Shown piece after piece: positions 1 to 62,601 of a stretch of 64,000 nucleotides of DNA (the stretch's first letter is position 1; every line of letters starts with the position of its first letter). A program made the position numbers and the translations under genes. Below the pieces are notes generated by a model. The model saw only the letters and a program-made list of their open reading frames with translations. It ran no database searches and was not told the DNA's origin. This stretch comes from an uncultured Gammaproteobacteria bacterium (GTDB lineage: Bacteria > Patescibacteriota > Microgenomatia > Levybacterales > UBA12049). The DNA is taken from assembly GCA_964512695.1 (NCBI GenBank), contig CAZEJU010000005.1:5668-69667 (forward strand), in the 5' to 3' direction.

Positions 1-130
1 CGGAACAAACAGATTGAACTATAGTGCCCCCAGTGGCTTGCTGACGAAGATCTTGTTGCTGACGAAGTAATAAGATAGTAACAACCATCCCTAATACAAG
101 GATAATGCCAAAAAGCACTTTTCGTGACAT
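1..130 (-). CDS. 5'-partial (runs off window start) secreted/anchored protein; N-terminus MSRKVLFGIILVLGMVVTILLLRQQQDLRQQAT is paralogous to the N-terminus of the 205..1086 protein
   Basis: Hand translation of rc(1..130): ATG at 130..128, hydrophobic helix, then the QQQDLRQQA motif shared with the ORFs at 1086 and 47517. No stop before the window edge. Confidence 0.35.
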   Translation of the reverse strand, partial: MSRKVLFGIILVLGMVVTILLLRQQQDLRQQATGGTIVQSVCS

Positions 131-204
131 GGTAAACATATTCTTTTGATTCTCTGACTGTTGCGTATTAGTTTTATTATTCCGTAATGCTTCTTCCATA
201 GGAT

Positions 205-1086
205 TTATTCACAGAATGGACACTCTACTTTTACATTTAATACTCTTTCTGGAACTGGACAACTTGATATGCTTGGTGTCGGAAATACTCTCGTCGGCTC
301 TGGCGTCTCAGTTGGTCTCGGCGTCGGAGTGTTCGTCGGCTCTGGCGTCATAGTGGGTGTCGCAGATGGACCTCTGGTCGGTGTTAATGTCGGACGAGGT
401 GTTAAAGTTGCTGTAGGTCGCGGGGTAAGAGTACTAGTCGGCCGTGGTGTCGGCGTGTTTGTCAGTCGAGGTGTCGGTGTATTCGAGGGTCTTGGGGTGG
501 GAGTGGGAGTTGGACCACTGCCTATCGGTAATGATGGAGTTGGAGTGCGTGTCGGTATTAAGGTCGGTGTGCTAGTCGGCCTCGGAGTAGGGGTAACAGT
601 TGGTCTGGGTGTGGGTGTATTTGTAGGAAATACCCGTGGAGGTTCTTCGGGTATTGGTGTAGCGGTAGGAAAAGGTTCTACTTTGGGAGTGGCGTAATTA
701 CAAGAGCGTGTCGAACCATCATAACAATTATTGGCAGGAAATATGAATCCAGGTTCACCCATACATTTCGGACATGGTTTATTATGCATTGTTAAACCAA
801 GACACTCCATCCCATAACCATAAAATCCCCTTGATGGATCCGGTGTTCCAAAGACCCTATCTATATCTTCTTTTGTTATATCTGTATATCCGGCAGAAGA
901 TTTTATTTGAGGCTTTGCATTGTCACATACCCAATCTGATGGAACATTAGAGGCACTCTGACGTAAATCTTGGTTTTGTTTTACCAGAAGTAATGTAATA
1001 GGAATACCGACAAGGAGTACTACGATTATTCCAAGTAATGAAGGATTTTGTCTGAGGTGAATAAGAAACGCTTTCAATTTTTCCAT
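205..1086 (-). CDS. Secreted/membrane-anchored protein with an N-terminal signal anchor, a Cys-containing domain and a long Pro/Thr-rich (TPTPRPT)n repeat linker
   Basis: 293-aa ORF. N-terminal hydrophobic segment followed by VKQNQDLRQSAS, then tandem TPTPRPT-type repeats over ~140 aa, and a Cys-rich C-terminus (CPVPERVLNVKVECPFCE). Confidence 0.6.
   Translation of the reverse strand: MEKLKAFLIHLRQNPSLLGIIVVLLVGIPITLLLVKQNQDLRQSASNVPSDWVCDNAKPQIKSSAGYTDITKEDIDRVFGTPDPSRGFYGYGMECLGLTMHNKPCPKCMGEPGFIFPANNCYDGSTRSCNYATPKVEPFPTATPIPEEPPRVFPTNTPTPRPTVTPTPRPTSTPTLIPTRTPTPSLPIGSGPTPTPTPRPSNTPTPRLTNTPTPRPTSTLTPRPTATLTPRPTLTPTRGPSATPTMTPEPTNTPTPRPTETPEPTRVFPTPSISSCPVPERVLNVKVECPFCE
269..700. repeat. 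Tandem nucleotide repeats encoding the Pro-Thr-rich linker (PTPRPT-type) of the 205..1086 protein
   Basis: Repetitive ggtgtcgg/ggcgtcgg-like units seen on the + strand. The protein shows (T)PTPRPT repeated more than 12 times. Confidence 0.6.
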
Positions 1087-1148: not shown

Positions 1149-1454
1149 CTATAGTTTCGAGGGAGATTCGTTTCTAAGTTTTAGCTGGGAAAAAAATAAT
1201 GCAGGAATAATTGCTAATAAGGCAAAACAGGCAGAAACATAAAAAGCCACCATTACGCTAAAAGTATCTGAAATTACCCCTAATAGAATTGGTGAAACGG
1301 TTGTAGCGATATTGGTAAAAAAAGAATGTACGCCAAATGCTTTCTCATGGTTATCTTCATTCTCAAGAGACTGTGATACTAGAGTTTGAGCTACAGGGAT
1401 AGTACCCTTAGTGAGTACTCCTAATACAGTTGAAACTACTATAATTACAGGCAT
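1149..1454 (-). pseudogene. C-terminal remnant of an MFS-type transporter (about 3 TM helices), apparently 5'-truncated
   Basis: 101-aa ORF of hydrophobic helices (SFFTNIATTVSPILLGVISD...). Only 40 bp separate it from the upstream prfB stop, so there is no room for the N-terminal 9 or more TM helices. Confidence 0.35.
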
Positions 1455-27000: not shown

Positions 27001-27504
27001 TTATCTTGAAGCAGATATTGTAGTTGAGCCTTCAGCTCTGCAAGCCGTTACAGTTACTATATTATTTGCATCAACAACAATCCCGTATCCTGTTGAGGTC
27101 GAACTCGACGACAGGCTTGGGTCGACAGGAATTGTTTTTAAGTATTTAACGAGCGGAGTCGCAAGATTTGTGCAGCTTGAAGCTGTGACACTGCATCCTC
27201 CTGTTGAAATTGCACATCCCGATGAAGCTGATCCAAGCTGGACTTGTGACATTCCGGTAGAAAGCCCCGACGGAAGAGAACCACCGTTATCTACTATATA
27301 AGCATGGACCGCAGTAAGGATCGTATTTACATCTGAGGTGCGTCGTGCGTTTCTCGCGTCTTGAAATCTTTGCGCTGGATTAAGTGCTACGAATACTACT
27401 ACGGCCAAAGTTGCTATAATAACTATTACGATTAAAAGTTCAATAAGAGTAAAACCTTCTTTGGAATTTTGGAGTTTGAATTTAAAATTTAAATATTTCT
27501 TCAT
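27001..27504 (-). CDS. Type IV pilin (class III signal peptide, probable major pilin)
   Basis: MKKYLNFKFKLQNSKEG|FTLIELLIVIVIIATLAVV is a prepilin cleavage/methylation motif (G-F-T-L-I-E). Start moved to the internal Met so the leader is 17 aa. The C-terminal region is Cys-containing. Confidence 0.75.
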   Translation of the reverse strand: MKKYLNFKFKLQNSKEGFTLIELLIVIVIIATLAVVVFVALNPAQRFQDARNARRTSDVNTILTAVHAYIVDNGGSLPSGLSTGMSQVQLGSASSGCAISTGGCSVTASSCTNLATPLVKYLKTIPVDPSLSSSSTSTGYGIVVDANNIVTVTACRAEGSTTISASR

Positions 27505-27560
27505 AGGCAGAATATTATATAAAGTTATCGTATCGTGTAGTGCATAAAAAATCAAGTAAT

Positions 27561-27944
27561 TTATATCTCTTTCCAACTTGAGATCGTCAAATAAGATCCT
27601 CCTCTGTTTACTACAGCCTGGACTGTTCTTCTGTAATCTGTCGCGGTAGTTGTGGTAGTAACTGTGTAATTAGATCCTGCTTGAGACACGGTTATGGTAC
27701 ATATTCCTTCAGGTCGAGATATTGTTCCACCTGCATAAGACGCGCTATTTCTAAGCTTTAAAAGCGCGTCTTCCATACACCCTTCTATAAAAACCAAAGC
27801 ACCTTCGCCTTTCGTAATCGCTAGTGAAACTTGTCCTTCACCTACACCAAGCTGAGCAACGGTTATCATAACACCCGAAATGACGACAGTTAATATGAGG
27901 ATAATTGATATCGCTACATATCCTTGTTCAGATTTTTTTTTCAT
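27561..27944 (-). CDS. PilX-like minor pilin (hydrophobic N-terminus without the canonical GFxxxE)
   Basis: 127 aa starting MKKKSEQGYVAISIILILTVVISGVMITVA, lying inside the prepilin gene cluster. Confidence 0.45.
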   Translation of the reverse strand: MKKKSEQGYVAISIILILTVVISGVMITVAQLGVGEGQVSLAITKGEGALVFIEGCMEDALLKLRNSASYAGGTISRPEGICTITVSQAGSNYTVTTTTTATDYRRTVQAVVNRGGSYLTISSWKEI

Positions 27945-27945
27945 A

Positions 27946-28494
27946 TTAATTACCCCTTAATTCAGCACTACTCTCAATAACCACTGAATCCTGATACTCC
28001 TGACGTGCAGCCACAAAAGAGGCTGCTACTGTCATTACAAACTGTATGTGTTTCGATTTATTGTCAACTGAGCTATAGTTTGTAAATGTTAGAAGTGTAA
28101 TAACAGTATTACTAGAGTTAATAGCTACTGCACTACCGACACCTTGTTTAATTCTTATATTCCCTCCTGATAAATCAATTACAGTCGGATTCGTCCCAGG
28201 CGTTGAAGTTGCAAGGGAAAGAGATGTTGCAGAAACAGAATTTATACCCGTAGCATTCCTAATCTCATATTTGATTCGTTCAGTAATATACCGTGCGTTC
28301 GCATTTACCTCTTGAGCAGTCGCACTTTTTACGCCTAATTCAACACTGTTCCAGGCAAAAGGAACAAGTGCAGATAAAATAATTGTTATTAAAGCAATGT
28401 ACAGAATAAGCTCGATTAAGGTAAAACCACGTTCATGTGAACTGAATGTGATAAAACCATTATTATTTTGTGAAATTATATGTAGACTTCGCAT
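27946..28494 (-). CDS. Prepilin-type minor pilin (PilW/pseudopilin-like)
   Basis: ERGFTLIELILYIALITIILSAL N-terminal methylation motif. Confidence 0.7.
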   Translation of the reverse strand: MRSLHIISQNNNGFITFSSHERGFTLIELILYIALITIILSALVPFAWNSVELGVKSATAQEVNANARYITERIKYEIRNATGINSVSATSLSLATSTPGTNPTVIDLSGGNIRIKQGVGSAVAINSSNTVITLLTFTNYSSVDNKSKHIQFVMTVAASFVAARQEYQDSVVIESSAELRGN

Positions 28495-28495
28495 A

Positions 28496-30004
28496 TTATT
28501 GTGGCTTAAGTATTAAAAACTCGGACGAACTATTTGTATCAGCGATAAATATACGATCATTGCTCGTATCATATACAACTTCTTTTGGAAAATTTACAAT
28601 ATTTAGTGATCCCAATGCCGGCAAACCTGGTAATGAATCTAGATTACTGCCATTGATAACTAAAAAATCATTTGTTGCCGAATTAGTTCCTAGAAAAAGT
28701 AGATTATTCCCAAAACTTATAGAGTTTACATCTGCTCCAATTTCAACAGTTGATTTAAGCAAAAGACTTGTTGGTGTGGAAACATCAATTGAGTAAAGTT
28801 CTGGCGCTCCGCTGGAAACTCTTCCCACCAAAATTCTATTCCCTCCGGCATTATAAATCGCAATCGCGTTTGCAGGATTGTTTCCGCTATCAAGATTAAA
28901 AATAGCATCACGCGCAAGCGTTGTAAGATTTATTACTTGTACTTCAGCAGCATTATCATCAGATGTAACAAACGCATAACTTCCTACAATAACTACCCCA
29001 GTAGGAGTTCCCGTTATTCCAGAACCAGTCCCGGTAATTGTGGGAGAAGCCGGATTTGAAATATTAAACTTAATAAACTCATTACCTCCATTCCTTACCA
29101 TATATAAAAAGTTTCCGGAAATCGCCAGAGCAATAGCATCAGCGTTATCATTACCACTGTTAACGACCGTTAAATTTACGGAATTCAACGTTGCAGTTGA
29201 AAGGCTTGTTGGAGAGCTAATATCTATAATCTGCAACTCCTGAGAGTTATTAGTTGATGCAATATATGCGTAATTACCATTAATAACAATATCATTTACG
29301 TCACCTCCAAGTTCGCGTTGGCAGTTTACACACATAGAGGGAACAGTAGTATTTGATACATCAATTGAAAAAAATTCAGTACCAACTGAACTAGCACGAC
29401 CTAAAAAAATATAGTTACCAGATCTTACAAGAGATATTCCATTAGCAGCATTTGCACCGCTATTTGCTAGTGTTAAATCGAAGCTCGAATCAAGAGATGG
29501 ACTTGCCCAATTTCCCACAATTGCCTTTCTCCAATCCGATAAATAACTTGAGAGGACAACAGAATTAGATCTTGTAGATGTAAAGTTCCAAGAAACTGTT
29601 GATGTAATTTTCTTAGTCAGAGGGTCAACAGTACCCCCACTTGTCACAATATTTCCGTTTCCATCCCTTGAAACATCAGATACTGTTATGACTCTCGTAT
29701 ACTTACTACTTAGAATATTATTGCTTCCTGAAAAACTCCAGACATTTCCCACTCTGGAAATACCTGTCCCAGGACTGTTTACCAAACTCGCAAAATTCTG
29801 GTTTTTAATTGAACGGGTTGCCTCAATACCTTCAGATGCATACTGTGTAGCTATGGTTTGCTCTTCTCCAAGCCTATTTGAGTCTAATCCTTGCAGCATA
29901 ACCATGACTGCACCAGATGCTAATATCATAAACAAAGCAGTAGCTATAATAACTTCAATAACCGAAAATCCCTTTTGGTGACACTCTTCAAAATATAATT
30001 TCAT
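28496..30004 (-). CDS. Large prepilin-headed protein with about 6 beta-propeller-type (LVIVD-like) repeats; candidate pilus tip adhesin (PilV/PilY1-like function)
   Basis: QKGFSVIEVIIATALFMILASGAVMV prepilin N-terminus, then repeated ~45-aa units (..ASTNNSQELQIIDIS.., ..RASSVGTEFFSIDVS.., ..RVSSGAPELYSIDVS.., ..TNSATNDFLVINGS.., ..DTNSSSEFLILKP). Confidence 0.6.
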   Translation of the reverse strand: MKLYFEECHQKGFSVIEVIIATALFMILASGAVMVMLQGLDSNRLGEEQTIATQYASEGIEATRSIKNQNFASLVNSPGTGISRVGNVWSFSGSNNILSSKYTRVITVSDVSRDGNGNIVTSGGTVDPLTKKITSTVSWNFTSTRSNSVVLSSYLSDWRKAIVGNWASPSLDSSFDLTLANSGANAANGISLVRSGNYIFLGRASSVGTEFFSIDVSNTTVPSMCVNCQRELGGDVNDIVINGNYAYIASTNNSQELQIIDISSPTSLSTATLNSVNLTVVNSGNDNADAIALAISGNFLYMVRNGGNEFIKFNISNPASPTITGTGSGITGTPTGVVIVGSYAFVTSDDNAAEVQVINLTTLARDAIFNLDSGNNPANAIAIYNAGGNRILVGRVSSGAPELYSIDVSTPTSLLLKSTVEIGADVNSISFGNNLLFLGTNSATNDFLVINGSNLDSLPGLPALGSLNIVNFPKEVVYDTSNDRIFIADTNSSSEFLILKPQ

Positions 30005-30438
30005 CTGCTAACTACTCCTTGAGAATTAATCACAAATTGTTTTGAGGTATCGTTACTAGTAATAGAGTATGTGCCTGTAGTGCTGGGTAAACCAGTAACT
30101 TTTGTAAAAACAACTTCAGTAAAGCCTGCAATAGATATATTGGAGTTGACCCTGAATGTTTCATCAAAAGCTGCATTGCGTGTAGCATACGAATTTCCTT
30201 GAAAAAGAGTTAAGGTATTTGATCCAAAACGCACTCCCCAATTACCGTTTTGCCTACCCATCATCGCATAGATTTGAGCTTTTCTCGCTTCTCCTAAGAA
30301 TTGATCCTGTACATTGGCTACAGCGTTTTGCGTCAAGAAACGGGAAAAGAAAACTACTGAGAATGTGCCAATAGAAATTATTATCGCGATAACTAAGAGT
30401 AATTCAATAATGGTAAAACCAGCAGCTTTTCTGTACAT
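30001..30438 (-). CDS. Prepilin-type minor pilin (GspH/FimT-like)
   Basis: MYRKAAGFTIIELLLVIAIIISIG motif. Start moved to the internal Met to remove the 68-nt overlap with pilC. Confidence 0.65.
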   Translation of the reverse strand: MYRKAAGFTIIELLLVIAIIISIGTFSVVFFSRFLTQNAVANVQDQFLGEARKAQIYAMMGRQNGNWGVRFGSNTLTLFQGNSYATRNAAFDETFRVNSNISIAGFTEVVFTKVTGLPSTTGTYSITSNDTSKQFVINSQGVVSR

Positions 30439-30448
30439 ATCATGACAC

Positions 30449-31534
30449 TTAGCGCTTGATACTACTACTAAACTGATAAATCGGTCCAATAATGGAAACT
30501 GCAATAAAGGCAACAATCAACCCTACTATTATTAATATTACTGGCTCAAGAATTGTTGAAAGATTCTTGGAAGTACTATCAACTTCATCTTCAAAATAAT
30601 CCCCTAAGTAACTGAATGTCTCGTCAAGTTTACCCGTTTTTTCTCCAACGCCCAGCATCCTGACTGCAATAAGCGGAAAAAAATTAAATTTTGAATGATC
30701 AAAAATGCTCTCAAGTGTTTTGCCTCTCTCTACCCCTTTTTGAATCCTGTCTATATATTCCCTGAAGATCATATTTTGCGTGGATTCTTTTTGAATTTCC
30801 AGTGCGCGTGTAATTGGGATTGAACTTTGAAGCAAAGTACCCATATTCCTGCAGATTGACGCAAGCTGTACATTTTGTATAAACGAACCAATTACAGGAA
30901 GGCTTAGCAAAAATCTATGCCATAAAGGTTTTGCAAATTTTTGGGAGATAGTTACTTTAAACGCGATCACACAAATACCTAAAAATGCGAAGATATAAAT
31001 CCCATAATTGTTCATTACGTTTGCAAACCAAAGAAGAATTCTTGTTGTTATCGGAAGCTCTACATCCAGGGAATTAAATAGGTCAACTAACTTTGGTAAA
31101 ACAAAAATACTCAAACCAATTGCGGCTGTAAACGCGACTAAAAGCACAATAGTTGGATAGAGTAATGCGCTCTTAATTTTTTGCGAGAACTCATGGGTCT
31201 TTCTTAAATGTGTTGCAAGGTAATCCAGATTCTTCTCAAGGTTTCCTGATTGTTCCCCGACTTTTATAAGCTGCACATAAAATGGATCAAAAAATTTTGG
31301 ATAAAAAGATAATGCCTTATCAAACTCTTGCCCATTTACAACTTCTTCGCGGATTTTATGCAAAACCTTTCTGAAATATACATTATTGTTCTGCCTAGAA
31401 ACTATTTCGATTGATTCAGCCAGGGGTATTCCACTTTTAAGCATAATGGAAAGGTGCTTCGTAAACGTCAGTCTTTCAACCGCACTGACACCTCCAAAGA
31501 TTACTATGTTATCAGACATCTTAGGCAGTTTCAT
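30449..31534 (-). CDS. pilC: Type IV pilus inner-membrane platform protein PilC (GspF family)
   Basis: Two T2SS_F repeats, 3 TM helices and the typical length of 361 aa. Adjacent to pilB. Confidence 0.85.
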   Translation of the reverse strand: MKLPKMSDNIVIFGGVSAVERLTFTKHLSIMLKSGIPLAESIEIVSRQNNNVYFRKVLHKIREEVVNGQEFDKALSFYPKFFDPFYVQLIKVGEQSGNLEKNLDYLATHLRKTHEFSQKIKSALLYPTIVLLVAFTAAIGLSIFVLPKLVDLFNSLDVELPITTRILLWFANVMNNYGIYIFAFLGICVIAFKVTISQKFAKPLWHRFLLSLPVIGSFIQNVQLASICRNMGTLLQSSIPITRALEIQKESTQNMIFREYIDRIQKGVERGKTLESIFDHSKFNFFPLIAVRMLGVGEKTGKLDETFSYLGDYFEDEVDSTSKNLSTILEPVILIIVGLIVAFIAVSIIGPIYQFSSSIKR

Positions 31535-31605
31535 ATTTGAATTTAAAATTTGGACTGTTGAATACAGAATTTAATTATTAAAATCTATACTTCAGATTCT
31601 AGAGT

Positions 31606-33300
31606 CTACTCGCGCGTTGCACGTAATACTTCTTCAATAGTTGTTATTCCTTCAGCTATTTTTTCCAGACCGTCTTCGGCCATTTTTCTCATTCCTTCTT
31701 TTATCGCCATCTGTTCAATTGTGTCAGAATCTGCTTTTTGGACAATTAAAGCTCTGATTGCCTCATTCATTTCTAGAACTTCAAAGATACCTATTCTTCC
31801 CATGTACCCACTCATGTGGCAAACAGAACATCCTTTTCCTTTATATATCCTTATTGATGATTTACTTCCGTAAATTTTTCTGATCAAGTCACGGCTAAAA
31901 TCTTTTAGAAGTTCCGACAGCTCGATGTCTAGAGAATATTTACACTTCTCACAAATTTTACGAACCAAACGTTGCGCGATTACAACATTTATTGTCGATG
32001 CGACTAAAAACGGTTCTACTCCCATGTCAATAAACCTTGGAACCGCTGTCGCCGCGTCATTTGTATGCAGTGTAGAAAGGACAATATGTCCTGTTAAAGC
32101 AGAATTAATTGCAATGTCCGCAGTCTCATCATCTCTGATTTCACCAATATATATGATATTCGGGTCTTGCCTCAAAATTGAGCGCAATCCTTCCGCAAAT
32201 GTTAAATTAGTTTTTGCATTAACTTGAATCTGGTTTATACCCTCCACGTCATACTCAACGGGATCTTCAATTGTCGCGATATTTTTGTCAGGTGTGTTTA
32301 AAATTTTAAGAATTGCATACATAGTAGTTGTTTTACCGCTTCCAGTTGGCCCCGTGGACAATATCATACCGTACGGTTTATTCATGGCGTTAACCACTTT
32401 CTCATGGTCTTCTTTGCTCATTCCCAGATTAGATAAACTAAACTGCCTGAAATGTGAAGCTAAAAGCCTTAAAACAGCTTTCTCCCCATGAACTACCGGC
32501 ACCATTGAGACACGGATATCCAAATCTTCTTCAGGAAGTTGAACCTGTATCTTTCCATCCTGTGCTGAGGCATGCTCATCAGTTTGTAATGAAGCTAAAA
32601 CCTTAATCCTTAGAACCACCTGCTTATATACCTCCAAAGATAAGGTCAAAACTTCGTGCATAATCCCGTCAATCCTAAACCTTACCTGCGCGTTATCTTT
32701 TGCAGGCTCTATATGAATGTCAGACGCGTTATTCCTATATGCGTATTCGATAAGTAAATCCACTATTTTTATAATCGGTGCTTCATAGATTTTACCGTCT
32801 CCTAAAATATCAACTTGTTCAGCTAAAAGCGCATCGAATTTTTTTTGCAGATCTTTTTTATAGATTTTTAGCGATTGCTCAATATCACGCCGTATAGCAA
32901 AATATGGAATTACTTTTTTATTCACTTTGCGTTGGATAAATTCAAGCAATTTGAGGTTCGAGGTGTTCGCAAGTGCAATTTTAACATTATCTGGATTGTC
33001 TTGAAAAACGATAGCACTAAACTCTTTCGCGAGTTGCTCGGGTATTATATACGAGGCGCTATCAGGAATAGAAACAGTCTGAAGATTAATATACGGAACA
33101 TTAATCATATCTGCAATGATTCTGCCAAGCCCAACAGAATCTATTAAATCATGGTCGATAAGTGCTTCAGCAAACGATACATTTTCCTTCTCACATTCTG
33201 TAAATGTTTTGATCAGTTCTTTTTCTTCAATAACTTTCAGTTCTTTTAAAGAGTTCAATAAATCCTTGGCGAATGGTTCCATACTTTTTAATCGTATCAA
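31606..33300 (-). CDS. pilB: Type IV pilus assembly ATPase PilB (GspE family)
   Basis: N-terminal GSPII_E_N-like region, Walker A LSTGPTGSGKTTT, Asp box and His box, and a tetracysteine motif CEKCK...CSVCH. Confidence 0.9.
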   Translation of the reverse strand: MIRLKSMEPFAKDLLNSLKELKVIEEKELIKTFTECEKENVSFAEALIDHDLIDSVGLGRIIADMINVPYINLQTVSIPDSASYIIPEQLAKEFSAIVFQDNPDNVKIALANTSNLKLLEFIQRKVNKKVIPYFAIRRDIEQSLKIYKKDLQKKFDALLAEQVDILGDGKIYEAPIIKIVDLLIEYAYRNNASDIHIEPAKDNAQVRFRIDGIMHEVLTLSLEVYKQVVLRIKVLASLQTDEHASAQDGKIQVQLPEEDLDIRVSMVPVVHGEKAVLRLLASHFRQFSLSNLGMSKEDHEKVVNAMNKPYGMILSTGPTGSGKTTTMYAILKILNTPDKNIATIEDPVEYDVEGINQIQVNAKTNLTFAEGLRSILRQDPNIIYIGEIRDDETADIAINSALTGHIVLSTLHTNDAATAVPRFIDMGVEPFLVASTINVVIAQRLVRKICEKCKYSLDIELSELLKDFSRDLIRKIYGSKSSIRIYKGKGCSVCHMSGYMGRIGIFEVLEMNEAIRALIVQKADSDTIEQMAIKEGMRKMAEDGLEKIAEGITTIEEVLRATRE

Positions 33301-33927: not shown

Positions 33928-34308
33928 TTATAAGTAGCTTTTAACCTCTTCTGCTATTGCTGACAAACTTGCATCTGATTTGACCAGAAAATCTATGGCT
34001 CCCATTTCTTTCGCCATTTTTTTATCTTCTTCTTGCGATAAATTCGAAGTGATAATTACTTTTGTGTTTATCCCTTTTTCACGAATAACTGATAGTACCT
34101 CCCAACCATCAATACCAGGCATCATGATATCTAAAAGGACTAAGGAATAAGTCCCTGATTGCAATTCCTTTAATCCTTCCTCACCGCTGAAGACCACGTG
34201 AGCAGTAATGCCCCCTTTTTGAAGCTTTATCTCCATCGCTTTTCCCATTGCTTTTTCGTCCTCAATAATAAGAACTTTTTTTGTATTGTTACTATTTACA
34301 CTTTCCAA
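33928..34308 (-). CDS. Single-domain response regulator (CheY-like receiver)
   Basis: KKVLIIEDEKAMGKA..., LVLLDIMMPGIDGWEV, conserved K (SNLSQ..K). 126 aa. Confidence 0.8.
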   Translation of the reverse strand: MESVNSNNTKKVLIIEDEKAMGKAMEIKLQKGGITAHVVFSGEEGLKELQSGTYSLVLLDIMMPGIDGWEVLSVIREKGINTKVIITSNLSQEEDKKMAKEMGAIDFLVKSDASLSAIAEEVKSYL

Positions 34309-34359
34309 ACTGTAATATTCACCCTCTTTCTTTTTATATTTTCTCTTCTGTTTGAGAAT

Positions 34360-34782
34360 TTAATAGAGCTGCACTTCTTTATCTTGCAAATCAAAAATCC
34401 CATTTAATTTTTCAACTATTTCTTCTAGGGAATTTTCTGATTTAACAAGATAATAAGACGGCTGGTCGGTTACTACATGAGTTAACCTTTCGTCATTTGT
34501 ATCAAAATTCGTAAGAATAACCACTGAAGCATATTTACCCCATTTATTCTCACGTAACTTATGTAACATAGTCAGACCATCCATTTTGGGCATTTCAATA
34601 TCCAGTAAAATTGCGTTCGGATGATTTTTTAATGCAGCATCCAGCCCAGTTGCTCCGTCCCCAGCTTCTAAAACTAAAAACCCTAAGCTTTCTAGTTTCA
34701 CGGCAATTGCTTGCCTAAGAGAGGCATCATCTTCAATGATAAGAATGGACTTACTCGTTTCCAAATTATTTTGATTTGCCAT
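34360..34782 (-). CDS. Single-domain response regulator (CheY-like receiver)
   Basis: KSILIIEDDASLRQA..., ILLDIEMPKMDGLTML. 140 aa. Confidence 0.8.
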   Translation of the reverse strand: MANQNNLETSKSILIIEDDASLRQAIAVKLESLGFLVLEAGDGATGLDAALKNHPNAILLDIEMPKMDGLTMLHKLRENKWGKYASVVILTNFDTNDERLTHVVTDQPSYYLVKSENSLEEIVEKLNGIFDLQDKEVQLY

Positions 34783-35170
34783 ATAAGCATTCTTTTAGAG
34801 CCTCAACTATTTGATCTAAGCGAAAATTCGCCTTAACAAAGTACTTATTCACCCCCAGCTGCATATACATTCTCACTTTTTCTTCGCTTGCCGTATTACT
34901 TACAACAAAAATTGGAATATGTTTCCATTTTGAATCAGAACTTTTGATTTTTGTAACCAAATCTAATCCGTCATCTTTACCTAACAAATAGTGGTCTAAC
35001 CAAATTCCATCCACCTGACTAAGTTCTTCCAAATAAGACATGGCTTGTTGTACACTTCTTGCGGTAGCCACATTAATATTGTTATTCTCAAGCTTTATCT
35101 TAATCACTTCTAACAATGGAATTTCATCCTCAATAACTAAAATCGTTTTTGTCTCCATAAAGATAGTCAC
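34766..35170 (-). CDS. Single-domain response regulator (CheY-like receiver)
   Basis: KTILVIEDEIPLLEV..., IWLDHYLLGKDDGLDLV. 134 aa, overlapping the next receiver gene by 17 nt. Confidence 0.75.
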   Translation of the reverse strand: MTIFMETKTILVIEDEIPLLEVIKIKLENNNINVATARSVQQAMSYLEELSQVDGIWLDHYLLGKDDGLDLVTKIKSSDSKWKHIPIFVVSNTASEEKVRMYMQLGVNKYFVKANFRLDQIVEALKECLYGKSK

Positions 35171-35179
35171 CTCCTTCCT

Positions 35180-37381
35180 TCATTTTAATCTTCTATTACC
35201 GTCTTTCTTCACCATTCCAGAAAGAGGCAATAACACAAAAAACGTTGTACCTTTATTTTCTTCCGAATAAAACCATATTTTACCTCGGCAATGATCTATC
35301 AATGATTTTACAAGATACAATCCTAACCCAGTTCCATCAGTATTTTGTACTCTGACATTATCTGCCCTAAAAAGTTTTTCGAAAACTTTTCCTTGTTGCA
35401 TGGTGGTTATTCCGATACCATTATCCTCAACTTCTATAAGAAGACTATTCTCTTCTGCTTTTACCCCACCAACTGCTTCTTCCTGCTGGATAGTTTTTAA
35501 AGAGATTTTTATTTCTCCGTTTTCATTGGTGTATTTGATTGAATTTGTAAGCAAGTTCTGGAGTATGATTGTAGTTAAGTTAGGATCAAGCATGATTTGG
35601 GGCATATCATCTTTCTCGAGGACTACTCTTAATTTTTTCTCATCTATCATAGGCTTTGACTCATCCAGGATAGAACGGGTTAATCTCACAATATCAACCA
35701 TTTCAGGTTCAATCATGTAATTGCCTGTTTCAATTCTCGACACATTCAGTAGTGCATTTACCAGCTTTGACAGGCGCTGACTTCCTTGATAGGCTTCCTG
35801 GATAAACTTTTTTTGCTCATCTGTTACATTACCTGCATCTCCAGATAAAAGAAGTTCACAATACCAATTGATAGTTGAGAGAGGCGTACGCAGCTGATGA
35901 GATGCTAAAGAGATAAATTCTGACTTAGCCCTGTCTATTTGCTTTTCTCTCGTAACATCATGCAGAACAGTAACCGTGCCCAATAGTTTATTCCTCAGTA
36001 GAATGGGAGTAATCGTAACTAATACCGCAATCTTTTCTCCATTTTTTTTGGTATAGATCACTGCACTGCTGATCTTCTCTTTACGGGATAGCACTTTATT
36101 TATAATTCTTTCCGCAGGAGGTATGACTCTTCCATTTTCATCTTCCGCCTTAATAGCTTCAATTAATTTTCTCTCTACCAGATCCTGTGGGGTATATCCT
36201 AATAACTCTTCTATTGCTTGATTTATCCTCACAATTTGTCCCTTCTCATCTGTGACGATCAGTCCGTCCCCAATACTTGATATAAGAACTTCATCATATA
36301 TGCGTTCTTCCTCAAGATGGGTTATATCCTCTTCTGTCCCTATAAAGCCAATTATCCTATCTTCCTTTTTTATGGGTGAAATATGGGTAATCACGGTGTA
36401 ATATTCACCATTTTTTCGTCTATTCTGTAGCTCCCCATCAAATCCTTCACCTGCTCGTATTGTTTGCCATAGTTTTTGGTACAAGTCTTGAGTCATAATA
36501 CCACCCCATAAGCGAGGCGTATTATTTTTCATCTCCTCAAAACTAAAACCTGTCATTTGCTGAGCTTTTTTATTTGCAAAAACAACAAACCCGTTTACAT
36601 CAGTTATCACAACGTGATTGCGGGAGTCTTGAATTGCTTGCAACATAATATTCTTCTCTGTTTGTTCATTATTAAAATCAGATTCTGTTAAAATAGTATC
36701 ATTTATTCTTGGATAGTGTTCCTCAAAACGCATGTTCTGAAAAGGAGTATTTCTGCGGGCTAGAAGCACATATGTCTCATCAATAAACCCCTGCGGACCA
36801 CAAATAAAGAAAAGATCCTCCGCAAAATTGATTCCTGATGGAAAAAGTTCATTTGATATTTTTCCAATATGGTTTACAAATACGATATTTTGCTGTGCAG
36901 TTATCCTGGAAAGCTCTTCTGAGAAAGCGCTTTTTTCAGAAGCTGAGTTAACATACATAAGTGTTAAATTTGGATTCATCTCTTCCTGGAGAGAGTTAAT
37001 AATTGAAAGAAATGGTGCAATCCCGACTCCGCCTGCGATCATAACTATATTTTGTTTTTGATTTTTAAGTGAATAGGAACTCCCAAATGGACCGAGTATT
37101 TTTACCCTACTTTGAAGTGGAAGTTCTAAAAGCGTTTTTATATATCCTGAATCTGAATTGCGAAAAAGAATAGAGCAGGATTTTTTATTCAAAGAACTGG
37201 AGATAATAGAGAAAGCTCTTCTCCCTCCTTTTAGATCCGGGTATAAAAGCTCGGACACAATTACCCAGACATATTGACCGGGAGAAAAACTAAAATCTTG
37301 TTCAAAGAAGAAGGTAATGACTGTCGTGTCTTTTGCAACTGTTTTCTTTTCCTGAATTGTCGCCCACATTTCATTACTCAT
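35180..37381 (-). CDS. Hybrid sensor histidine kinase: N-terminal ferredoxin-NADP-reductase-like FAD/NAD(P)-binding oxidoreductase module, then 2 PAS domains, HisKA and HATPase_c
   Basis: FNR-family motifs RRAFSIISS (RxYS FAD site), MIAGGVGIAPFLSII (GGxGxxP NAD site) and FFICGPQGF. Two PAS-like segments. H-box ASHQLRTPLSTI, N-box LLTNSIKYT, G1 VEDNGIGI, G2 GTGLGLYLVKSL. Confidence 0.8.
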   Translation of the reverse strand: MSNEMWATIQEKKTVAKDTTVITFFFEQDFSFSPGQYVWVIVSELLYPDLKGGRRAFSIISSSLNKKSCSILFRNSDSGYIKTLLELPLQSRVKILGPFGSSYSLKNQKQNIVMIAGGVGIAPFLSIINSLQEEMNPNLTLMYVNSASEKSAFSEELSRITAQQNIVFVNHIGKISNELFPSGINFAEDLFFICGPQGFIDETYVLLARRNTPFQNMRFEEHYPRINDTILTESDFNNEQTEKNIMLQAIQDSRNHVVITDVNGFVVFANKKAQQMTGFSFEEMKNNTPRLWGGIMTQDLYQKLWQTIRAGEGFDGELQNRRKNGEYYTVITHISPIKKEDRIIGFIGTEEDITHLEEERIYDEVLISSIGDGLIVTDEKGQIVRINQAIEELLGYTPQDLVERKLIEAIKAEDENGRVIPPAERIINKVLSRKEKISSAVIYTKKNGEKIAVLVTITPILLRNKLLGTVTVLHDVTREKQIDRAKSEFISLASHQLRTPLSTINWYCELLLSGDAGNVTDEQKKFIQEAYQGSQRLSKLVNALLNVSRIETGNYMIEPEMVDIVRLTRSILDESKPMIDEKKLRVVLEKDDMPQIMLDPNLTTIILQNLLTNSIKYTNENGEIKISLKTIQQEEAVGGVKAEENSLLIEVEDNGIGITTMQQGKVFEKLFRADNVRVQNTDGTGLGLYLVKSLIDHCRGKIWFYSEENKGTTFFVLLPLSGMVKKDGNRRLK

Positions 37382-37436
37382 AAGAAATAACGTGGACTTC
37401 AGGAGTCTCTTATAATAGTAGTATATACTAATTCAA

Positions 37437-37967
37437 TTACTTTGTTACATGATTTTCTGATACTTCATCGAGTGTTTCCATACCAATAAAAAATTCTACT
37501 TCTCCTTTAACATCAAGTATGGGAGAAATCCTGAGTAGAACAGGATAAAGCCGTCCATTTTTGTGTTTGTTGGTTACTTTTACCATGATAGCTTTCTTTT
37601 GCACTGCAATTTGATCCCACATCTCTTGATAGAATTCTCTTGTCATTTGGTTACCCCACAAGGCTGGAGTCTTCCCGAGTATCTCATGTGAAGAGTAACC
37701 GGTCGCAGCAACTACCTGTTCGTTTACATATAAAATAACACCATTTTTATCAGTTATAATAACTTGTCGTTCAATATCTTTTGAAATTGAGTTTATAAGT
37801 CCACAGCGCTCGCATTTTATATCAAATAACTGGAGCATGATCTGTTCTATGACAAGCAATTTGTTACATTTTGTACATCTATGTTTCTTCAGTAACTGTG
37901 TCTTAGCAACTTCAAGAGGAAATGAAACTGGTAAAAGACCTTGAGTACTACCTCGGTTATTGTTCAT
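37437..37967 (-). CDS. Zinc-ribbon (CxxC-x17-CxxC) + PAS domain protein
   Basis: CTKCNKLLV...CERCG followed by a PAS fold (ITDKNGVILYVNEQVVAATGYSSHEILGK...). 176 aa, immediately upstream of and co-directional with the sensor kinase. Confidence 0.55.
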   Translation of the reverse strand: MNNNRGSTQGLLPVSFPLEVAKTQLLKKHRCTKCNKLLVIEQIMLQLFDIKCERCGLINSISKDIERQVIITDKNGVILYVNEQVVAATGYSSHEILGKTPALWGNQMTREFYQEMWDQIAVQKKAIMVKVTNKHKNGRLYPVLLRISPILDVKGEVEFFIGMETLDEVSENHVTK

Positions 37968-47516: not shown

Positions 47517-48725
47517 TTGGCTTTTACATATATGAATGTAACTCCAAAAAAAATTGTAGTTTTTGGCTTTATTGCTGTATTACTAGTTGGAATTCCTGTA
47601 TCCTTATATCTTTTACAACAACAACAAGAAACACGATCTCAAGCTGAAAAATCAACCACATTATCATTTTTACCTGAATCCACAACAACTACTCCTATTA
47701 AAAAAGCAGTAAACGATGAAATTACACTTGATGTTCAGGTTAATCCAGGTAAAAATGTTGTGTCTTTCGTAAAGCTTGAAATTCAATACGACGAAACAAA
47801 ATTAGCAACAGCTGCAGCAGATAGTTTTCGCGTAAATGAAACAGCCTTCCCCATAACCCTTGAAGGTCCAGCTTTTTCTCCAGGTAAAATAGCTGTAACA
47901 TTATCGATAGGTTCGGATCCAACCAAAGCTATACAAACTATTACCAGAGCAGCTACAATAAAATTAAAAGCAAAGGCAAACACAGGTAGCACGCCAACGA
48001 ATGTTATATTTGGAAATAATACAGAAATACTATCTATAGGAGAAACTGATCAAGCGCAGGAAAATGTTTTATTAAATGTTAATCCTGCGGTAATAGAAAT
48101 AGGAGGAACTGCACCTATTACACCTTCTGTATCCGTAACATTAGCACCAAGTGTAACAGTAGCACCTACTACCCCACCAGTACCTACATCGCCTCCTCCA
48201 GTCACCCAACCAACTGCTGTTCCATCACCAGGACCAACAACGATTAATCAACTTCCTATCTGTAGTACTCTTACTATCGATAGAGCGACAACAGGAGCTG
48301 CACCTTATTCTGTAACTTTTACAGCAACAGGAACTGATGCTGATGGTACAATTAGCAAAGTTACATTTAATTATGGTGATGGGCCTGTAGAACCTGTTTT
48401 AAGTACTGGAGGGATAGGAACAAATAGTGTTAGCGTTCAACGTTCTCACACATATAACAATGCTGGTACGTATCAAGCATCGGCAACTCTTACCGATAGT
48501 GCAAATGGGGTAAATGACCCCAGCACATGTAAAGTAACTATCATAGTACAAGGAGTACCTACGGGGACCGGTAGCGGGGGAACAACACCAGTATCAGGCT
48601 CAACTTCAACACCAAAACCTACAGTATCTATCGATAAGCCAGGTCCTGGAGATACAATACTTGGAGCAGGCGCTATTGCATTACTTATAACAGTTATCGG
48701 AGGCTTCCTATTCTTCGCCATGTAG
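47517..48725 (+). CDS. Exported protein with an N-terminal signal anchor (the same QQQQETRSQA motif family), a PT-rich linker, a PKD domain and a C-terminal hydrophobic anchor
   Basis: PKD-domain pattern VTFTATGTDADGTISKVTFNYGDGPVE...RSHTYNNAGTYQASATLTDSANG. C-terminal KPGPGDTILGAGAIALLITVIGGFLFFAM. Confidence 0.65.
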   Translation: MAFTYMNVTPKKIVVFGFIAVLLVGIPVSLYLLQQQQETRSQAEKSTTLSFLPESTTTTPIKKAVNDEITLDVQVNPGKNVVSFVKLEIQYDETKLATAAADSFRVNETAFPITLEGPAFSPGKIAVTLSIGSDPTKAIQTITRAATIKLKAKANTGSTPTNVIFGNNTEILSIGETDQAQENVLLNVNPAVIEIGGTAPITPSVSVTLAPSVTVAPTTPPVPTSPPPVTQPTAVPSPGPTTINQLPICSTLTIDRATTGAAPYSVTFTATGTDADGTISKVTFNYGDGPVEPVLSTGGIGTNSVSVQRSHTYNNAGTYQASATLTDSANGVNDPSTCKVTIIVQGVPTGTGSGGTTPVSGSTSTPKPTVSIDKPGPGDTILGAGAIALLITVIGGFLFFAM

Positions 48726-50597: not shown

Positions 50598-52442
50598 TTA
50601 CTTAGGCACACACTGAAGATTCACGAGTTGGAGAGCTTTGCTTGAACTTGATACAGAAGGCTGCCTACATTCATACGCACTGCCTACAGGACCTGGAGGA
50701 ACATTCGTAGGAACAATTGGTTGTTGGTCTTCTCCGTCATGGATACCTATGGAAAGTGTCTGCTCATTTTGGTCTTCTGTAATCTCAAAAGGATCTGATA
50801 AAGCAGCCACTTTACCGCCTATCCGGACAATAATTCTATAATGACCAGGTACAATAATTAAATAACAATATCCATCACTACTTGTCGTTGCTGTAGGGGA
50901 ATACATCCTTTTTGGAAATATAGTGAACTCGGCACCCGATACACCTTTTTCACCTGCGTCGGCTTGTCCATTTTTATTAGCATCAGAAAAAACGAAACAT
51001 CGAAACCGAACTACAAGCCGACGTGGACGTTGGGTAGGTGTAGGAGGAATCTGGGTTACCGTCGCTGTAGGCTGAGGGGTAACTGTTAGCGTCGCTGAAG
51101 GCCTTGGAGTCAATGTCGGAGTGCTACCAGGCGGAGGCGTAGTTGTAGCTGTCGGTACAGGTGTGTTAGTAACAGTCACACCTCCACAAGCAGGATCATC
51201 TAATATTTTTTTCATATTTAAACGCTTTCCGCCTAAAGAAGTATCTATAGGATCTCCATTACGCACAAGACAATCTAGAACCTGATCTGGTGTTAATGAT
51301 TTCTGTGAGAGTAATAAGGCCACAGCCCCCGCTACATGCGGAGATGCCATAGATGTTCCTTGCAGGCTTTTATATCCTCCTCCCTTATACGTAGACACTA
51401 TAGTAGTACCTGGAGCCCCGATCTCTACTTTAGATCCATAGTTAGAAAATGATGCTCTCCTGTCATTCTGATCTGTAGCACCTACAGTAATAACTCCATT
51501 ACATGAAGCAGGTGTAAATGCACCAGCATCTGTCCCATCATTCCCCGCAGCTACAACAACTACTGTCCCCTGGCTACGAGCATAATTTACAGCATTTTGA
51601 TAAACGGACGCACACGGACCCCGTCCTCCCAAACTCATGTTTATTACTTTTGCACCATTTTTTGCAGCCCACTCAATACCTCTACTAATACCCGATGAAG
51701 GACCAGAACCATTATCTCCCAATACTTGAACAGCCATTAACCTAACATCCCAATTAATACCGCTTACCCCAGTAGAATTATTTGTCAAAGCACCAACTGT
51801 ACCTGAGACATGTGTCCCATGTCCTTGTCTGTCAATAGGATCTCCGTCAGCAGATGTGAAATCCGGACCTTTTATAATGTCCCTTGGTAAATCTGGATGA
51901 TTATAATCTACTCCAGTATCTAATATTGCCGCTATAATAGCTTTTCCACCAGTAGTTTTATCCCAAGCTTCCTCTAAACCAATTTTTTTATAATGCCACT
52001 GTTGTGCATAATATTGATCATTCGGCAACTTCGTAGCCTTAACTATTACATCTACCTCGACAGATTTAATTTCTTCATAGTCTATTATTATATTTCCAAC
52101 TTTCTCTAAATCTGTTCCTTTTTTAAATTCTAAAATATAGAAATTTTTTAATTGTGCGTCATCGCCATTGAATAATTTTTTATGTCCAATAACTCCTATA
52201 TTATTAAATTTTTGTTTTATTACTTCTGGACTCTTACCTTCTACAAATTCTACAAGGAGTCTGTCAGAGACATACTCTACTCCCTCAGCGATAAAAAAAG
52301 TTTTTCTGGGTACTTTCTTTCCTGTCTGTGCCAATGAAGTTACTAATAACACTAAAATACTAAAAGCTACCAATATGAATATAATTATCCACTTTTTATT
52401 TAAAGTCTGCAGTTTAGACATATCTATTTCATTGTTACACAT
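50598..52442 (-). CDS. Subtilisin-like serine protease (peptidase S8) with an N-terminal anchor/signal, an I9 propeptide and a C-terminal PT-linker plus extension domain
   Basis: Catalytic triad motifs AILDTGVDYNHPDL (D), HGTHVSGTVGA (H) and GTSMASPHVAGAVAL (S). PT-rich linker TNTPVPTATTTPPPGSTPTLTPRPS. Confidence 0.85.
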   Translation of the reverse strand: MCNNEIDMSKLQTLNKKWIIIFILVAFSILVLLVTSLAQTGKKVPRKTFFIAEGVEYVSDRLLVEFVEGKSPEVIKQKFNNIGVIGHKKLFNGDDAQLKNFYILEFKKGTDLEKVGNIIIDYEEIKSVEVDVIVKATKLPNDQYYAQQWHYKKIGLEEAWDKTTGGKAIIAAILDTGVDYNHPDLPRDIIKGPDFTSADGDPIDRQGHGTHVSGTVGALTNNSTGVSGINWDVRLMAVQVLGDNGSGPSSGISRGIEWAAKNGAKVINMSLGGRGPCASVYQNAVNYARSQGTVVVVAAGNDGTDAGAFTPASCNGVITVGATDQNDRRASFSNYGSKVEIGAPGTTIVSTYKGGGYKSLQGTSMASPHVAGAVALLLSQKSLTPDQVLDCLVRNGDPIDTSLGGKRLNMKKILDDPACGGVTVTNTPVPTATTTPPPGSTPTLTPRPSATLTVTPQPTATVTQIPPTPTQRPRRLVVRFRCFVFSDANKNGQADAGEKGVSGAEFTIFPKRMYSPTATTSSDGYCYLIIVPGHYRIIVRIGGKVAALSDPFEITEDQNEQTLSIGIHDGEDQQPIVPTNVPPGPVGSAYECRQPSVSSSSKALQLVNLQCVPK

Positions 52443-61875: not shown

Positions 61876-62601
61876 ATGCCTTATATCTATAAAAAACATG
61901 ATAAACAAAAGACAAGAAAGAAAGTTAGATATGCTGGGTTGAGTCTTTTTGTCTTTGGTTTGATGCTACTTTTATATATCTCCTTCCCACTCATCTCATG
62001 GGCTTTCATTTTCGAGCCTGCTTTTGCATCGGGCTCAATGCAGTCCCCTATACCACGAGCAACTGTACTCCATAAAGACGCTATAAAAACACTTATAGCT
62101 TCAGCAGTAGATTCATTTAGTAAAGATTATACAGATGCACAGAACTGGTTTCCTTCATATGTTCTTCATAAAGAAAAAACTGATTCTATAATTACAACCT
62201 ATAACCTAAGTATCCCAAAAATAGGCGTCAAATATGCAAACGTTTCAACGGTAGATACAGATTTGTCAAAACACCTTGTACATTACCCGGGTACTCCTCT
62301 TCCCTCTAAAAAGGGAAACGCAGTCATCTTTGGGCATTCCACATTACCTGGGCTTTTTAATCCCACGGATTATAAAACTATTTTCGCCAAAGCACATACT
62401 CTAAAAATTGGTGATACATTTTTAATCACCATGAATGCGAAAGAGTATAACTACCAAATTGAGAATATTACTATTACAACTCCTGACGACACGTCTATAT
62501 TTTTTCAAATGACAGATGCCAGCTATCTTACACTTGTTACATGTACACCTCCTGGAACTACATGGAAGCGGCTTATCATTAAAGCGAAGCTTATACAGTA
62601 A
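61876..62601 (+). CDS. Sortase-family transpeptidase
   Basis: N-terminal TM anchor, the His motif (AVIFGHSTLPG), catalytic TLxTC (YLTLVTCTPPG) and a downstream Arg (WKR). Confidence 0.65.
   Translation: MPYIYKKHDKQKTRKKVRYAGLSLFVFGLMLLLYISFPLISWAFIFEPAFASGSMQSPIPRATVLHKDAIKTLIASAVDSFSKDYTDAQNWFPSYVLHKEKTDSIITTYNLSIPKIGVKYANVSTVDTDLSKHLVHYPGTPLPSKKGNAVIFGHSTLPGLFNPTDYKTIFAKAHTLKIGDTFLITMNAKEYNYQIENITITTPDDTSIFFQMTDASYLTLVTCTPPGTTWKRLIIKAKLIQ

Follow-up and report, generated by a model that had tools for sequence, protein, structure and literature searches.

Three open reading frames (ORFs) in a stretch of 64,000 nucleotides from contig CAZEJU010000005.1 (the whole stretch is called the window below; G+C content 35.8%) begin with the same N-terminal leader of ~35 residues, in which a basic region is followed by a hydrophobic helix and by a glutamine-rich segment ending at an invariant alanine. 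The leader is modular, is conserved at the level of the peptide with a sharp boundary at the alanine, and is associated with sortase substrates and sortase genes. As judged from these sequences, it is a lineage-specific N-terminal element of surface proteins that precedes mature parts not homologous to each other. Probably it acts as a lineage-specific Sec-type signal peptide of the very small, uncultured Levybacteria and their close relatives in the Microgenomates group within the Candidate Phyla Radiation (CPR), which would be cut after the invariant alanine by a signal peptidase of type I (SPase I) or a specialised paralogue of this enzyme. Members of the CPR (Patescibacteria) are believed to lead a life of attachment to host cells, and most of their surface proteins carry no annotation.

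The three N-termini had been quoted in an earlier note on this DNA, and translation as well as a hidden Markov model (HMM) made without the window sequences confirmed them. The truncated minus-strand ORF 130..1, which runs off the window, starts with MSRKVLFGIILVLGMVVTILLLRQQQDLRQQATGG, the 293-residue minus-strand ORF 1086..205 with MEKLKAFLIHLRQNPSLLGIIVVLLVGIPITLLLVKQNQDLRQSASNV, and ...KKIVVFGFIAVLLVGIPVSLYLLQQQQETRSQAEKS forms the N-terminal part of the plus-strand ORF ending at 48725. For this third gene the likely start is ATG 47532 (MNVTPKK...), where both the family consensus and a database protein of identical sequence (P0001) begin; the ORF list gives the upstream TTG 47517. All three ORFs (130..1, 1086..205 and 47532..48725), referred to as gene B, gene A and the cohesin-PKD gene, respectively, have a common layout of a basic n-region, a hydrophobic helix of ~21 residues and the motif QQQ-[DE]-x-R-[SQ]-x-A. 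Their leaders are located as follows.

35..130, minus strand: leader of gene B, MSRKVLFGIILVLGMVVTILLLRQQQDLRQQA, ending at the invariant alanine (translation and HMM, E = 1e-4)
952..1086, minus strand: leader of gene A, MEKLKAFLIHLRQNPSLLGIIVVLLVGIPITLLLVKQNQDLRQSA (translation and HMM, E = 1.9e-10)
47532..47645, plus strand: leader of the cohesin-PKD protein, MNVTPKKIVVFGFIAVLLVGIPVSLYLLQQQQETRSQA (translation, family alignment and AlphaFold 2 model)

The model in question, an HMM of 35 positions, was built without any window sequence, its input being orthologues of the third protein from other genomes, and was compared with all 889 six-frame ORFs of at least 30 residues in the whole window. 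The three leader ORFs scored E = 5.6e-21, 1.9e-10 and 1e-4, the latter two values belonging to gene A (1086..205) and gene B (130..1), and the next ORF reached only E = 0.8, by which a chance resemblance of the three N-termini is ruled out.

An alignment of 24 leaders from different protein families, anchored on the final alanine, gave the consensus [AGS]-[ILV]-P-[VLI]-T-[VIL]-[YFL]-L-[VL]-[QRK]-Q-Q-Q-[DE]-x-R-[SQ]-[RQK]-A, ahead of which come a further ~10 hydrophobic residues and a short n-region that is basic, mostly by virtue of KK or RK. The leader can be divided into the n-region, the helix of ~21 residues, in most cases with a kink of the form [GAS]-[IV]-P-x-T at its centre, Q-Q-Q-[DE]-x as a helical continuation, and an extended R-[S/T/Q]-x-A segment. 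All positions from -19 to 0 of this alignment are constrained, and none past the alanine. Counting from the final alanine as P1, this residue is found in 269/269 profile-matching proteins and a proline at P1' in 0/269; arginine occupies P4 in 172 of 239 cohesin-family proteins and in 23 of 30 others. Serine or threonine is found at P3 in 214 of the 239 cohesin-family leaders; among the 30 leaders of other families, P3 is S in 16, G in one, and Q, E or N in 13, such that S or G accounts for only 17 of them, with the window-start genes outside these 17. Altogether the -3/-1 rule is satisfied in ~86% of the 269 proteins. Furthermore, leader genes found independently in the flanks of other loci (L008, L010, L012 and L028) have low profile scores and still retain T..L..QQ[DE].R..A.

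In an alignment of 120 orthologues of the cohesin-PKD protein (47-78% identity), the information content per column amounts to 3.1-3.4 bits over residues 1-40, as compared with 2.7-3.9 for the cohesin and PKD domains and 0.8-2.4 for the linkers. The three window copies share 51-61% nucleotide identity over 23 core codons and use different synonymous codons at most conserved residues; across all locus pairs, only 35% of the codons at conserved residues are identical. Recent gene conversion was rejected as the cause of the likeness because the synonymous codons differ and the nucleotide identity is low; the codon pattern argues that conservation acts on the peptide. These numbers also bear on the suggestion that the leader has no special function, being a relic of common ancestry or of recombination among surface-protein genes, comparable to the 5' ends that stay conserved in families of variable surface proteins, and serving simply as a generic signal peptide. 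The tandem arrangement of leader genes (in the window at its start, and at loci L008 and L010) and the frequent swapping of modules among surface-protein families would agree with a relic; the mature parts, however, are not homologous, the divergence of the window copies leaves no room for recent conversion, and among orthologues of ~50% identity the leader matches the folded domains in conservation, unlike generic signal peptides, which drift. A mere relic is already disfavoured on these grounds, and we regard it as very improbable.

A scan with one genome per species found the same element at nine loci, on contigs named Candidatus Levyibacteriota, Levybacteria, Patescibacteria and, in some cases, Gammaproteobacteria metagenome-assembled genomes (MAGs). 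Levyibacteriota is a member of the Microgenomates group within the Patescibacteria/CPR. A leader-only profile of 35 positions (A5), searched against 1.84 billion representative proteins, returned 335 matches at E <= 1e-3, 29 of them at E <= 1e-10, and among the matches listed every leader match begins within the first ~41 residues (residues 1-41). Of 149 listed matches, 122 have a cohesin/PKD mature part and 27 do not. The mature domains behind the leader comprise, by Pfam, Cohesin, PKD, CHRD, CarboxypepD_reg, SdrD_B/SpaA prealbumin-like, Big_13 and fn3 (Ig-like) domains; other carriers have several Cys-rich regions of no known family, or dockerin-like C-termini below the Pfam threshold. Further leader ORFs occur in the flanks of the fetched loci, often in tandem; L008 has a run of three, and L010 likewise has three. 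The metagenome scan confirmed at least 15 loci and holds little information on prevalence. The earlier note had proposed a lineage-specific motif of surface proteins, and this is borne out by its conservation in many Levybacteria and related genomes on unrelated mature domains; a restriction to the window paralogues, which that note had considered, is at odds with the 335 matches and their diverse mature parts.

Four of the loci, L004, L007, L008 and L010 (CAZCYO010000003, CAZWXQ010000001, CAZVON010000028 and CAZXND010000011), are titled "uncultured Gammaproteobacteria bacterium" yet carry Levybacteria-type leader, cohesin-PKD and dockerin-like genes. The Gammaproteobacteria labels of these third-party annotation (TPA) assemblies look wrong, and the MAGs so labelled were taken as mislabelled because their sequences are close relatives of the Levybacteria ones.

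No Pfam or NCBIfam model covers the three window N-termini in scans at E <= 1. The literature searched, of which coverage was incomplete, contained no description of the leader and none of LPXTG or cohesin/dockerin systems in CPR. To judge from the sequences, the leader most likely represents an undescribed, lineage-specific class of Sec signal peptides that bear a motif.

From the leader sequences we infer an export route that we consider likely, if by no means certain. The long hydrophobic segment would insert N-in through SecYEG, probably co-translationally via the signal recognition particle (SRP), a route thought probable because the hydrophobic core is long. The polypeptide would be translocated across the membrane, and a type I signal peptidase, which could be the housekeeping enzyme or else a paralogue specialised for the task, would cut right after the invariant alanine. 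The mature protein would then be kept on the cell by a C-terminal device, namely a sortase-processed LPXTG-like signal, a dockerin-like module with the cohesin protein as its binding partner, or, in gene A, the Cys module. An added function of the leader, in the choice of peptidase or in the timing or site of secretion, is suggested because it is strictly conserved beyond the needs of cleavage while ordinary signal peptides exist in the same genome. Such an ordinary short signal, MRKFLPVLFLSCFLFVVSAFTVFA before QTPP, is found on the 1126-residue ORF 57353..53973, and two S8 subtilases of the window have N-terminal hydrophobic segments without the Q-rich motif; because of these three proteins, the leader constitutes a subclass rather than the general signal style of the organism.

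The leader has the N-terminal position, the positive n-region and the uninterrupted, predicted-helical h-region of ~21 residues that are expected of a Sec signal, and the window also encodes SecA and a sortase. Also in favour of SPase I are the invariant alanine at P1, the mostly small residue at P3 and the lack of proline at P1', in keeping with the -3/-1 rule and the S1/S3 pockets of the enzyme (PMC9360617). The earlier note had called the post-helix motif unlike a canonical SPase I site; this was overstated with respect to the alanine in 269/269 proteins and the rule obeyed in ~86%, and is justified insofar as the site is atypical, with Q, E or N at -3 in 13/30 leaders and a long charged c-region.

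Several points weigh against a cleaved signal peptide of this kind. The 13 of 30 non-cohesin leaders with Q, E or N at P3 include both window-start genes (RQSA and RQQA), and proteins with such residues at -3 are poor SPase I substrates, as known from LepB mutagenesis. The c-region of ~10 residues, Q-rich and with D/E plus one or two arginines, is longer and more charged than usual. The h-region is of transmembrane length and its sequence itself is conserved, for which cleavage alone is an insufficient explanation; ~21 residues are at the upper end of the range of monoderm signals. One leader family (P0238/P0256) is weakly like SurA_N-type foldases (E = 0.007, below threshold), and some foldases of this type act membrane-anchored. 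A crude regular-expression search for the box motifs found no SPase I gene in 227 kb (window and loci), which is not evidence of absence. Finally, the cross-family sample was gathered with a profile that was built mainly from one family and itself favours the residues counted, and part of the apparent regularity, especially in the h-region, is a selection effect.

Some of these points would be met by an uncleaved signal-anchor, i.e. a permanent N-in/C-out helix whose conserved GIPxT kink and juxtamembrane QQQ-[DE]-x-R-x-x-A stretch would serve to retain or oligomerise the protein or to bring it into contact with a partner in the membrane, for instance sortase or a secretion/assembly factor. 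Conservation of a ~21-residue stretch of transmembrane length across families suggests helix-helix or helix-protein recognition, the P3 residues unfavourable for SPase I and the weak resemblance to SurA_N foldases point in the same direction, and in the AlphaFold 2 (AF2) model of the cohesin-PKD protein (49-sequence alignment; mean predicted local distance difference test score, pLDDT, 82.6) the helix extends six residues past the membrane segment. In the same model, on the other hand, the helix spans residues 5-34 and ends at T34, a coil follows from R35 to S41 and the first cohesin strand begins at T42, such that the A38-E39 bond is predicted to be exposed in coil, three residues ahead of the cohesin domain. 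The PT-rich (proline- and threonine-rich) stalk linkers always lie on the C-terminal side, and the first folded domain begins 1-4 residues past the alanine with no spacer, in contrast to what a retained helix would lead one to expect. Many carriers also possess a C-terminal transmembrane (TM) segment or an LPXTG-like anchor beside a sortase gene, and cleavage is favoured because a retained helix would tether LPXTG-type proteins at both ends; Gram-positive surface proteins have the same leader-to-C-terminal-anchor layout, and there the N-terminal signal is removed. Moreover, the abrupt end of conservation at an invariant small residue and the absence of proline at P1' are typical of a scissile bond. 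Taken from the sequences, the sharp boundary, the C-terminal anchors and the domain boundary favour cleavage over retention, and we consider a permanent signal-anchor unlikely.

If the leader is cleaved, the enzyme might be a dedicated protease other than SPase I, for example a rhomboid, a subtilase anchored in the membrane or a novel "N-terminal sortase-like" enzyme, which would recognise R-x-x-A; leader and enzyme would then form a genuine sorting system that mirrors the C-terminal signals composed of motif, TM helix and basic tail. The motif is far more specified than any SPase I site, with R at P4 in ~72-77%, D/E at P6 and the QQQ run; beyond the cohesin family, P3 is often occupied by a non-permissive residue, the genome has ordinary signal peptides as well, and two membrane-anchored S8 subtilases lie 2-5 kb from the window cohesin gene. 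Yet most leaders obey the -3/-1 rule, no peptidase gene consistently adjoins the leader genes, and their sole recurrent neighbour is the sortase, the known substrates of which are processed C-terminally. In L029 the surroundings of the cohesin gene lack the subtilases, which were for this reason rejected as its conserved partner. A dedicated protease of this sort therefore appears distinctly unlikely to us. A broader proposal, doubtful but worth stating, is that the leader acts as a genuine sorting signal for which dedicated recognition machinery exists, be it a specialised signal peptidase, a non-S26 protease, or a coupling to sortase or to a defined secretion site. Equally tentative is the corollary that such a signal would label practically all of the surface proteome with which Levybacteria and related Microgenomates contact their hosts, comprising the cohesin scaffold, dockerin-bearing partners, LPXTG proteins and gene-A stalk proteins.

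The association with sortase is most evident for the two genes at the window start. The earlier note had described them as tandem paralogues, which is wrong: BLASTP found no similarity outside the leader between the 293-residue gene A protein and the full-length gene B orthologue, i.e. their mature parts are unrelated. By synteny, the window-start genes are A and B of a conserved unit of stalk protein, LPXTG protein and sortase. The relevant features are listed below.

1..130, minus strand: 5' part of gene B (synteny with locus L012; the 43 visible residues are 55% identical to the N-terminus of L012 gene B)
205..1086, minus strand: gene A, 293 residues, with leader, Cys-rich head, PT-rich stalk of ~150 residues and C-terminal Cys module (ORF and orthologue P0269 in L012)
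208..267, minus strand: C-terminal module of gene A, SSCPVPERVLNVKVECPFCE, which gene-A-type proteins conserve at their C-terminal end (alignment)
61876..62601, plus strand: sortase gene with a TLVTCTPPG catalytic motif, encoding a candidate enzyme for the C-terminal signals of leader carriers (Pfam PF04203, E = 3.2e-22)

The related Levybacteria contig JAYRIM010000023 (L012) is syntenic with the window (RF2, the major facilitator superfamily (MFS) gene and others) and holds the whole A-B-sortase arrangement. Its gene A (285 residues; P0269) consists of leader, Cys-rich head, PT-rich stalk and a C-terminal ...SCPIPERVLNVKIECPFCEQ, and its gene B (449 residues) of the leader LLQQQQDLRQRA, an fn3-like Cys domain, PKD, LPPTG and a TM segment, with the sortase gene next to it. 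An A-B-sortase unit is also present on the more distant contig L028 (44% G+C), where B ends in LPSTG plus a TM segment. Gene A of the window and the L012 protein are 43% identical in the head domain and 86% identical in the C-terminal module. No family of Pfam or NCBIfam matches gene A, a word-indexed homologue search with its first 144 residues gave nothing, and relatives of gene A were recovered solely via the leader profile and synteny. The description "PT-rich" given in the earlier note fits the 293-residue protein well, and merely a linker of the 402-residue cohesin-PKD protein. By synteny, the cognate sortase gene should lie just past coordinate 1, and one similar to it is found at 61876..62601.

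The end of gene A, SCPxPxxVxN[VI]x[VI]ECPxC, aligns with the first ~20 residues of a contiguous Cys-containing domain in P0215 and P0260 (C..P..V.NV.V.FP.C.G..C.F..ASC.WD...), and by eye the fn3-like domain of gene B begins at the C.V..A.C.WD that comes next in this domain. The regions and proteins concerned are 208..267 (minus strand) in the window, 10001..12209 in L012 and 5474..7161 in L028, as well as P0215, P0260 and P0253. Such alignments may indicate a split domain, in which the stalk protein A would dock onto the sortase-anchored B through a complementing strand or a disulfide bond. A 101-residue MFS_1 fragment at 1149..1454 (minus strand) is located between gene A and RF2; it is probably a deletion remnant or pseudogene because the syntenic position in L012 (8772..9938) holds a full MFS transporter of 388 residues. 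Directly upstream of the window sortase gene lies a 778-residue ORF at 59524..61860 (plus strand), with only weak Baseplate_J/GlxA-barrel matches and without an obvious signal peptide.

The third carrier combines, in this order, leader, cohesin-like domain, PT-rich linker, PKD domain, low-complexity linker and C-terminal anchor.

47532..48725, plus strand: cohesin-PKD surface protein, 402 residues (Pfam PKD match; homologues with PF00963 Cohesin)
48636..48722, plus strand: KPGPGD plus hydrophobic helix (...LFFAM) of the cohesin-PKD protein (family consensus ...IAPTG... + TM + LFFxL)

Its homologues number more than 320; for several of them Cohesin (PF00963) and PKD matches are precomputed, and nearly all share the N-terminal GKKLFLIGF..VLLVGIPLTVYLLQQQQE[TV]R[ST]RA. 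Its gene is syntenic with groES/groEL and lepA, even in the distant genome L029. Across all classes of carriers the architecture is that of a leader, one or more domains, a PT-rich linker and a C-terminal device, i.e. an LPXTG-like signal with TM segment, a dockerin-like end or a Cys module. When the carriers were tested as sortase substrates, the gene B orthologues showed LPPTG or LPSTG and a TM segment beside a sortase gene, and the 402-residue protein KPGPGD and a TM segment with no basic tail. The region 48636..48722 looks like an LPXTG-type sortase signal minus the basic tail, and the NCBIfam scan at E <= 1 found no LPXTG-anchor family for this protein.

The C-terminal LPXTG variants encountered are LPPTG, LPSTG, IPPTGP, LAPTGS, IAKTGV, LPPPGD, SPGPGD and KPGPGD, each followed by a TM helix. 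The helices of these variant signals terminate in hydrophobic residues (LFFAL, IFLW) and lack a basic tail, an atypical feature among sortase substrates (window 48636..48722, plus strand; P0148, P0164, P0215, P0243, P0255, P0260, and gene B of L012 and L028). Many leader proteins end in DxNxDGxxD dockerin-like repeats (L008, L009, L010, P0227, P0259 and P0262), with Dockerin_1 scores of 17-21 bits as compared with a cut-off of 22.9. From their domain composition, Levybacteria appear to have a cohesin-dockerin surface display, built of a core wall-anchored cohesin-PKD protein and dockerin-like, leader-bearing partners.

The leader HMM provides a handle on the exported surface proteome of Levybacteria directly from sequence, including the apparent cohesin/dockerin display and the sortase substrates; generic predictors might call such leaders plain TM anchors, the hydrophobic stretch being long. 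If the leader had its own peptidase or targeting route, it would constitute a new class beside Tat (twin-arginine translocation), lipobox, class III, YSIRK and KxYKxGKxW, and a tool for secretion engineering and for the interpretation of CPR metaproteomes. If dedicated machinery were to serve it, it would be the first N-terminal counterpart of the lineage-wide PEP-CTERM/LPXTG sorting and a single HMM would open up the surface interactome of a CPR phylum that has not been cultured.

Regarding the other neighbours in the window, the tandem S8 subtilases (50598..52442 and 52466..53944, both on the minus strand) have N-terminal hydrophobic anchors or signals with no Q-rich motif, and both end in a similar Cys-flanked module, C-x11-12-KALQ[LM][VI]NL.C.P.., that loosely resembles the C-terminal module of gene A. 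Directly upstream of them on the same strand lies the 1126-residue protein (53973..57353, minus strand), with its canonical short signal peptide, several hydrophobic stretches and no Pfam match. In the regions 27001..33300 and 33928..37967 (both on the minus strand), a type IV pilus cluster of four N_methyl prepilin ORFs, one with LVIVD repeats, a PilC-like T2SSF and a PilB-like T2SSE protein adjoins three response regulators of a single domain each and a PAS histidine kinase whose N-terminus is a fused FAD/NAD oxidoreductase-like part.

Among the known classes of export signals, Tat was rejected (no RR pair in the n-regions, which have KK, RK or H/R/Q, a strongly hydrophobic h-region, and no Tat family in the NCBIfam scan), and so was the lipoprotein signal of SPase II, as the cross-family alignment has no Cys within the leader segment or just past the alanine. 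With class III prepilin signals the leader shares a conserved hydrophobic N-terminus in front of varied C-terminal parts; those signals, however, are cut before the helix between G and F, with Glu5, and the leader has neither feature. This class was rejected as well, since none of the three proteins matches PF07963 while four ORFs of the window pilus cluster do. The earlier note was therefore right to set the motif apart from lipobox and prepilin sites. A pilin-like assembly helix, which would stay on the protein and pack into a filament core as in type IV pilins, could draw on the pilin-like combination of hydrophobic N-terminus, mid-helix Pro/Gly and variable C-terminal domains, and on the pilus cluster in the window. 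Besides the missing G-F-x-x-x-E site and PF07963 match, it has to contend with C-terminal wall or membrane anchors and dockerin-like ends on the carriers and with conservation that halts at the alanine instead of continuing into an alpha1-C segment; it is already disfavoured, and we give it hardly any credence.

With the generic Sec/SPase I signals of monoderms the leader shares a basic n-region, a long h-region that has Gly/Pro at mid-helix, a residue of small size at -1 and in most cases at -3, and the lack of proline at +1. Generic signals are conserved in properties, whereas the leader is a defined sequence motif of ~20 residues, and it differs further in its c-region of ~10 residues with D/E and Arg and in the frequent Q, E or N at P3 (13/30) outside the cohesin family. 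The C-terminal systems LPXTG/sortase, PEP-CTERM/exosortase and PGF-CTERM/archaeosortase are likewise tripartite (motif, TM helix and charged cluster), occur on many surface proteins that are unrelated yet belong to one lineage, and thereby delimit a "sorted" sub-proteome. With basic cluster, TM helix and motif, the leader is their N-terminal mirror image. Each of these systems has a dedicated, co-occurring transpeptidase, whereas SPase I may suffice for the leader.

With respect to the YSIRK, KxYKxGKxW and SipW-cognate classes, no such family was among the Pfam/NCBIfam matches (E <= 1) of the three N-termini, from which the YSIRK and KxYKxGKxW motifs are absent, and all three classes were rejected. 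As an analogy, YSIRK/GXXS signals (Pfam PF04650; e.g. protein A of S. aureus) are nevertheless instructive. They differ in host lineage (Firmicutes rather than CPR) and in their motif, which has another sequence and lies at the n/h boundary, whereas the leader is conserved in the C-terminal half of the h-region and in a long, Q-rich, charged c-region. In both cases, a conserved motif is embedded in an otherwise ordinary Sec signal, is common to non-homologous surface proteins, many of which are sortase substrates, and coexists with motif-less signal peptides in the same cell. Staphylococcal YSIRK/GXXS leaders direct sortase substrates to septal secretion (PMC5962339, PMC11898559), and by analogy the Levybacteria leader could steer the timing or site of secretion in a similar manner.

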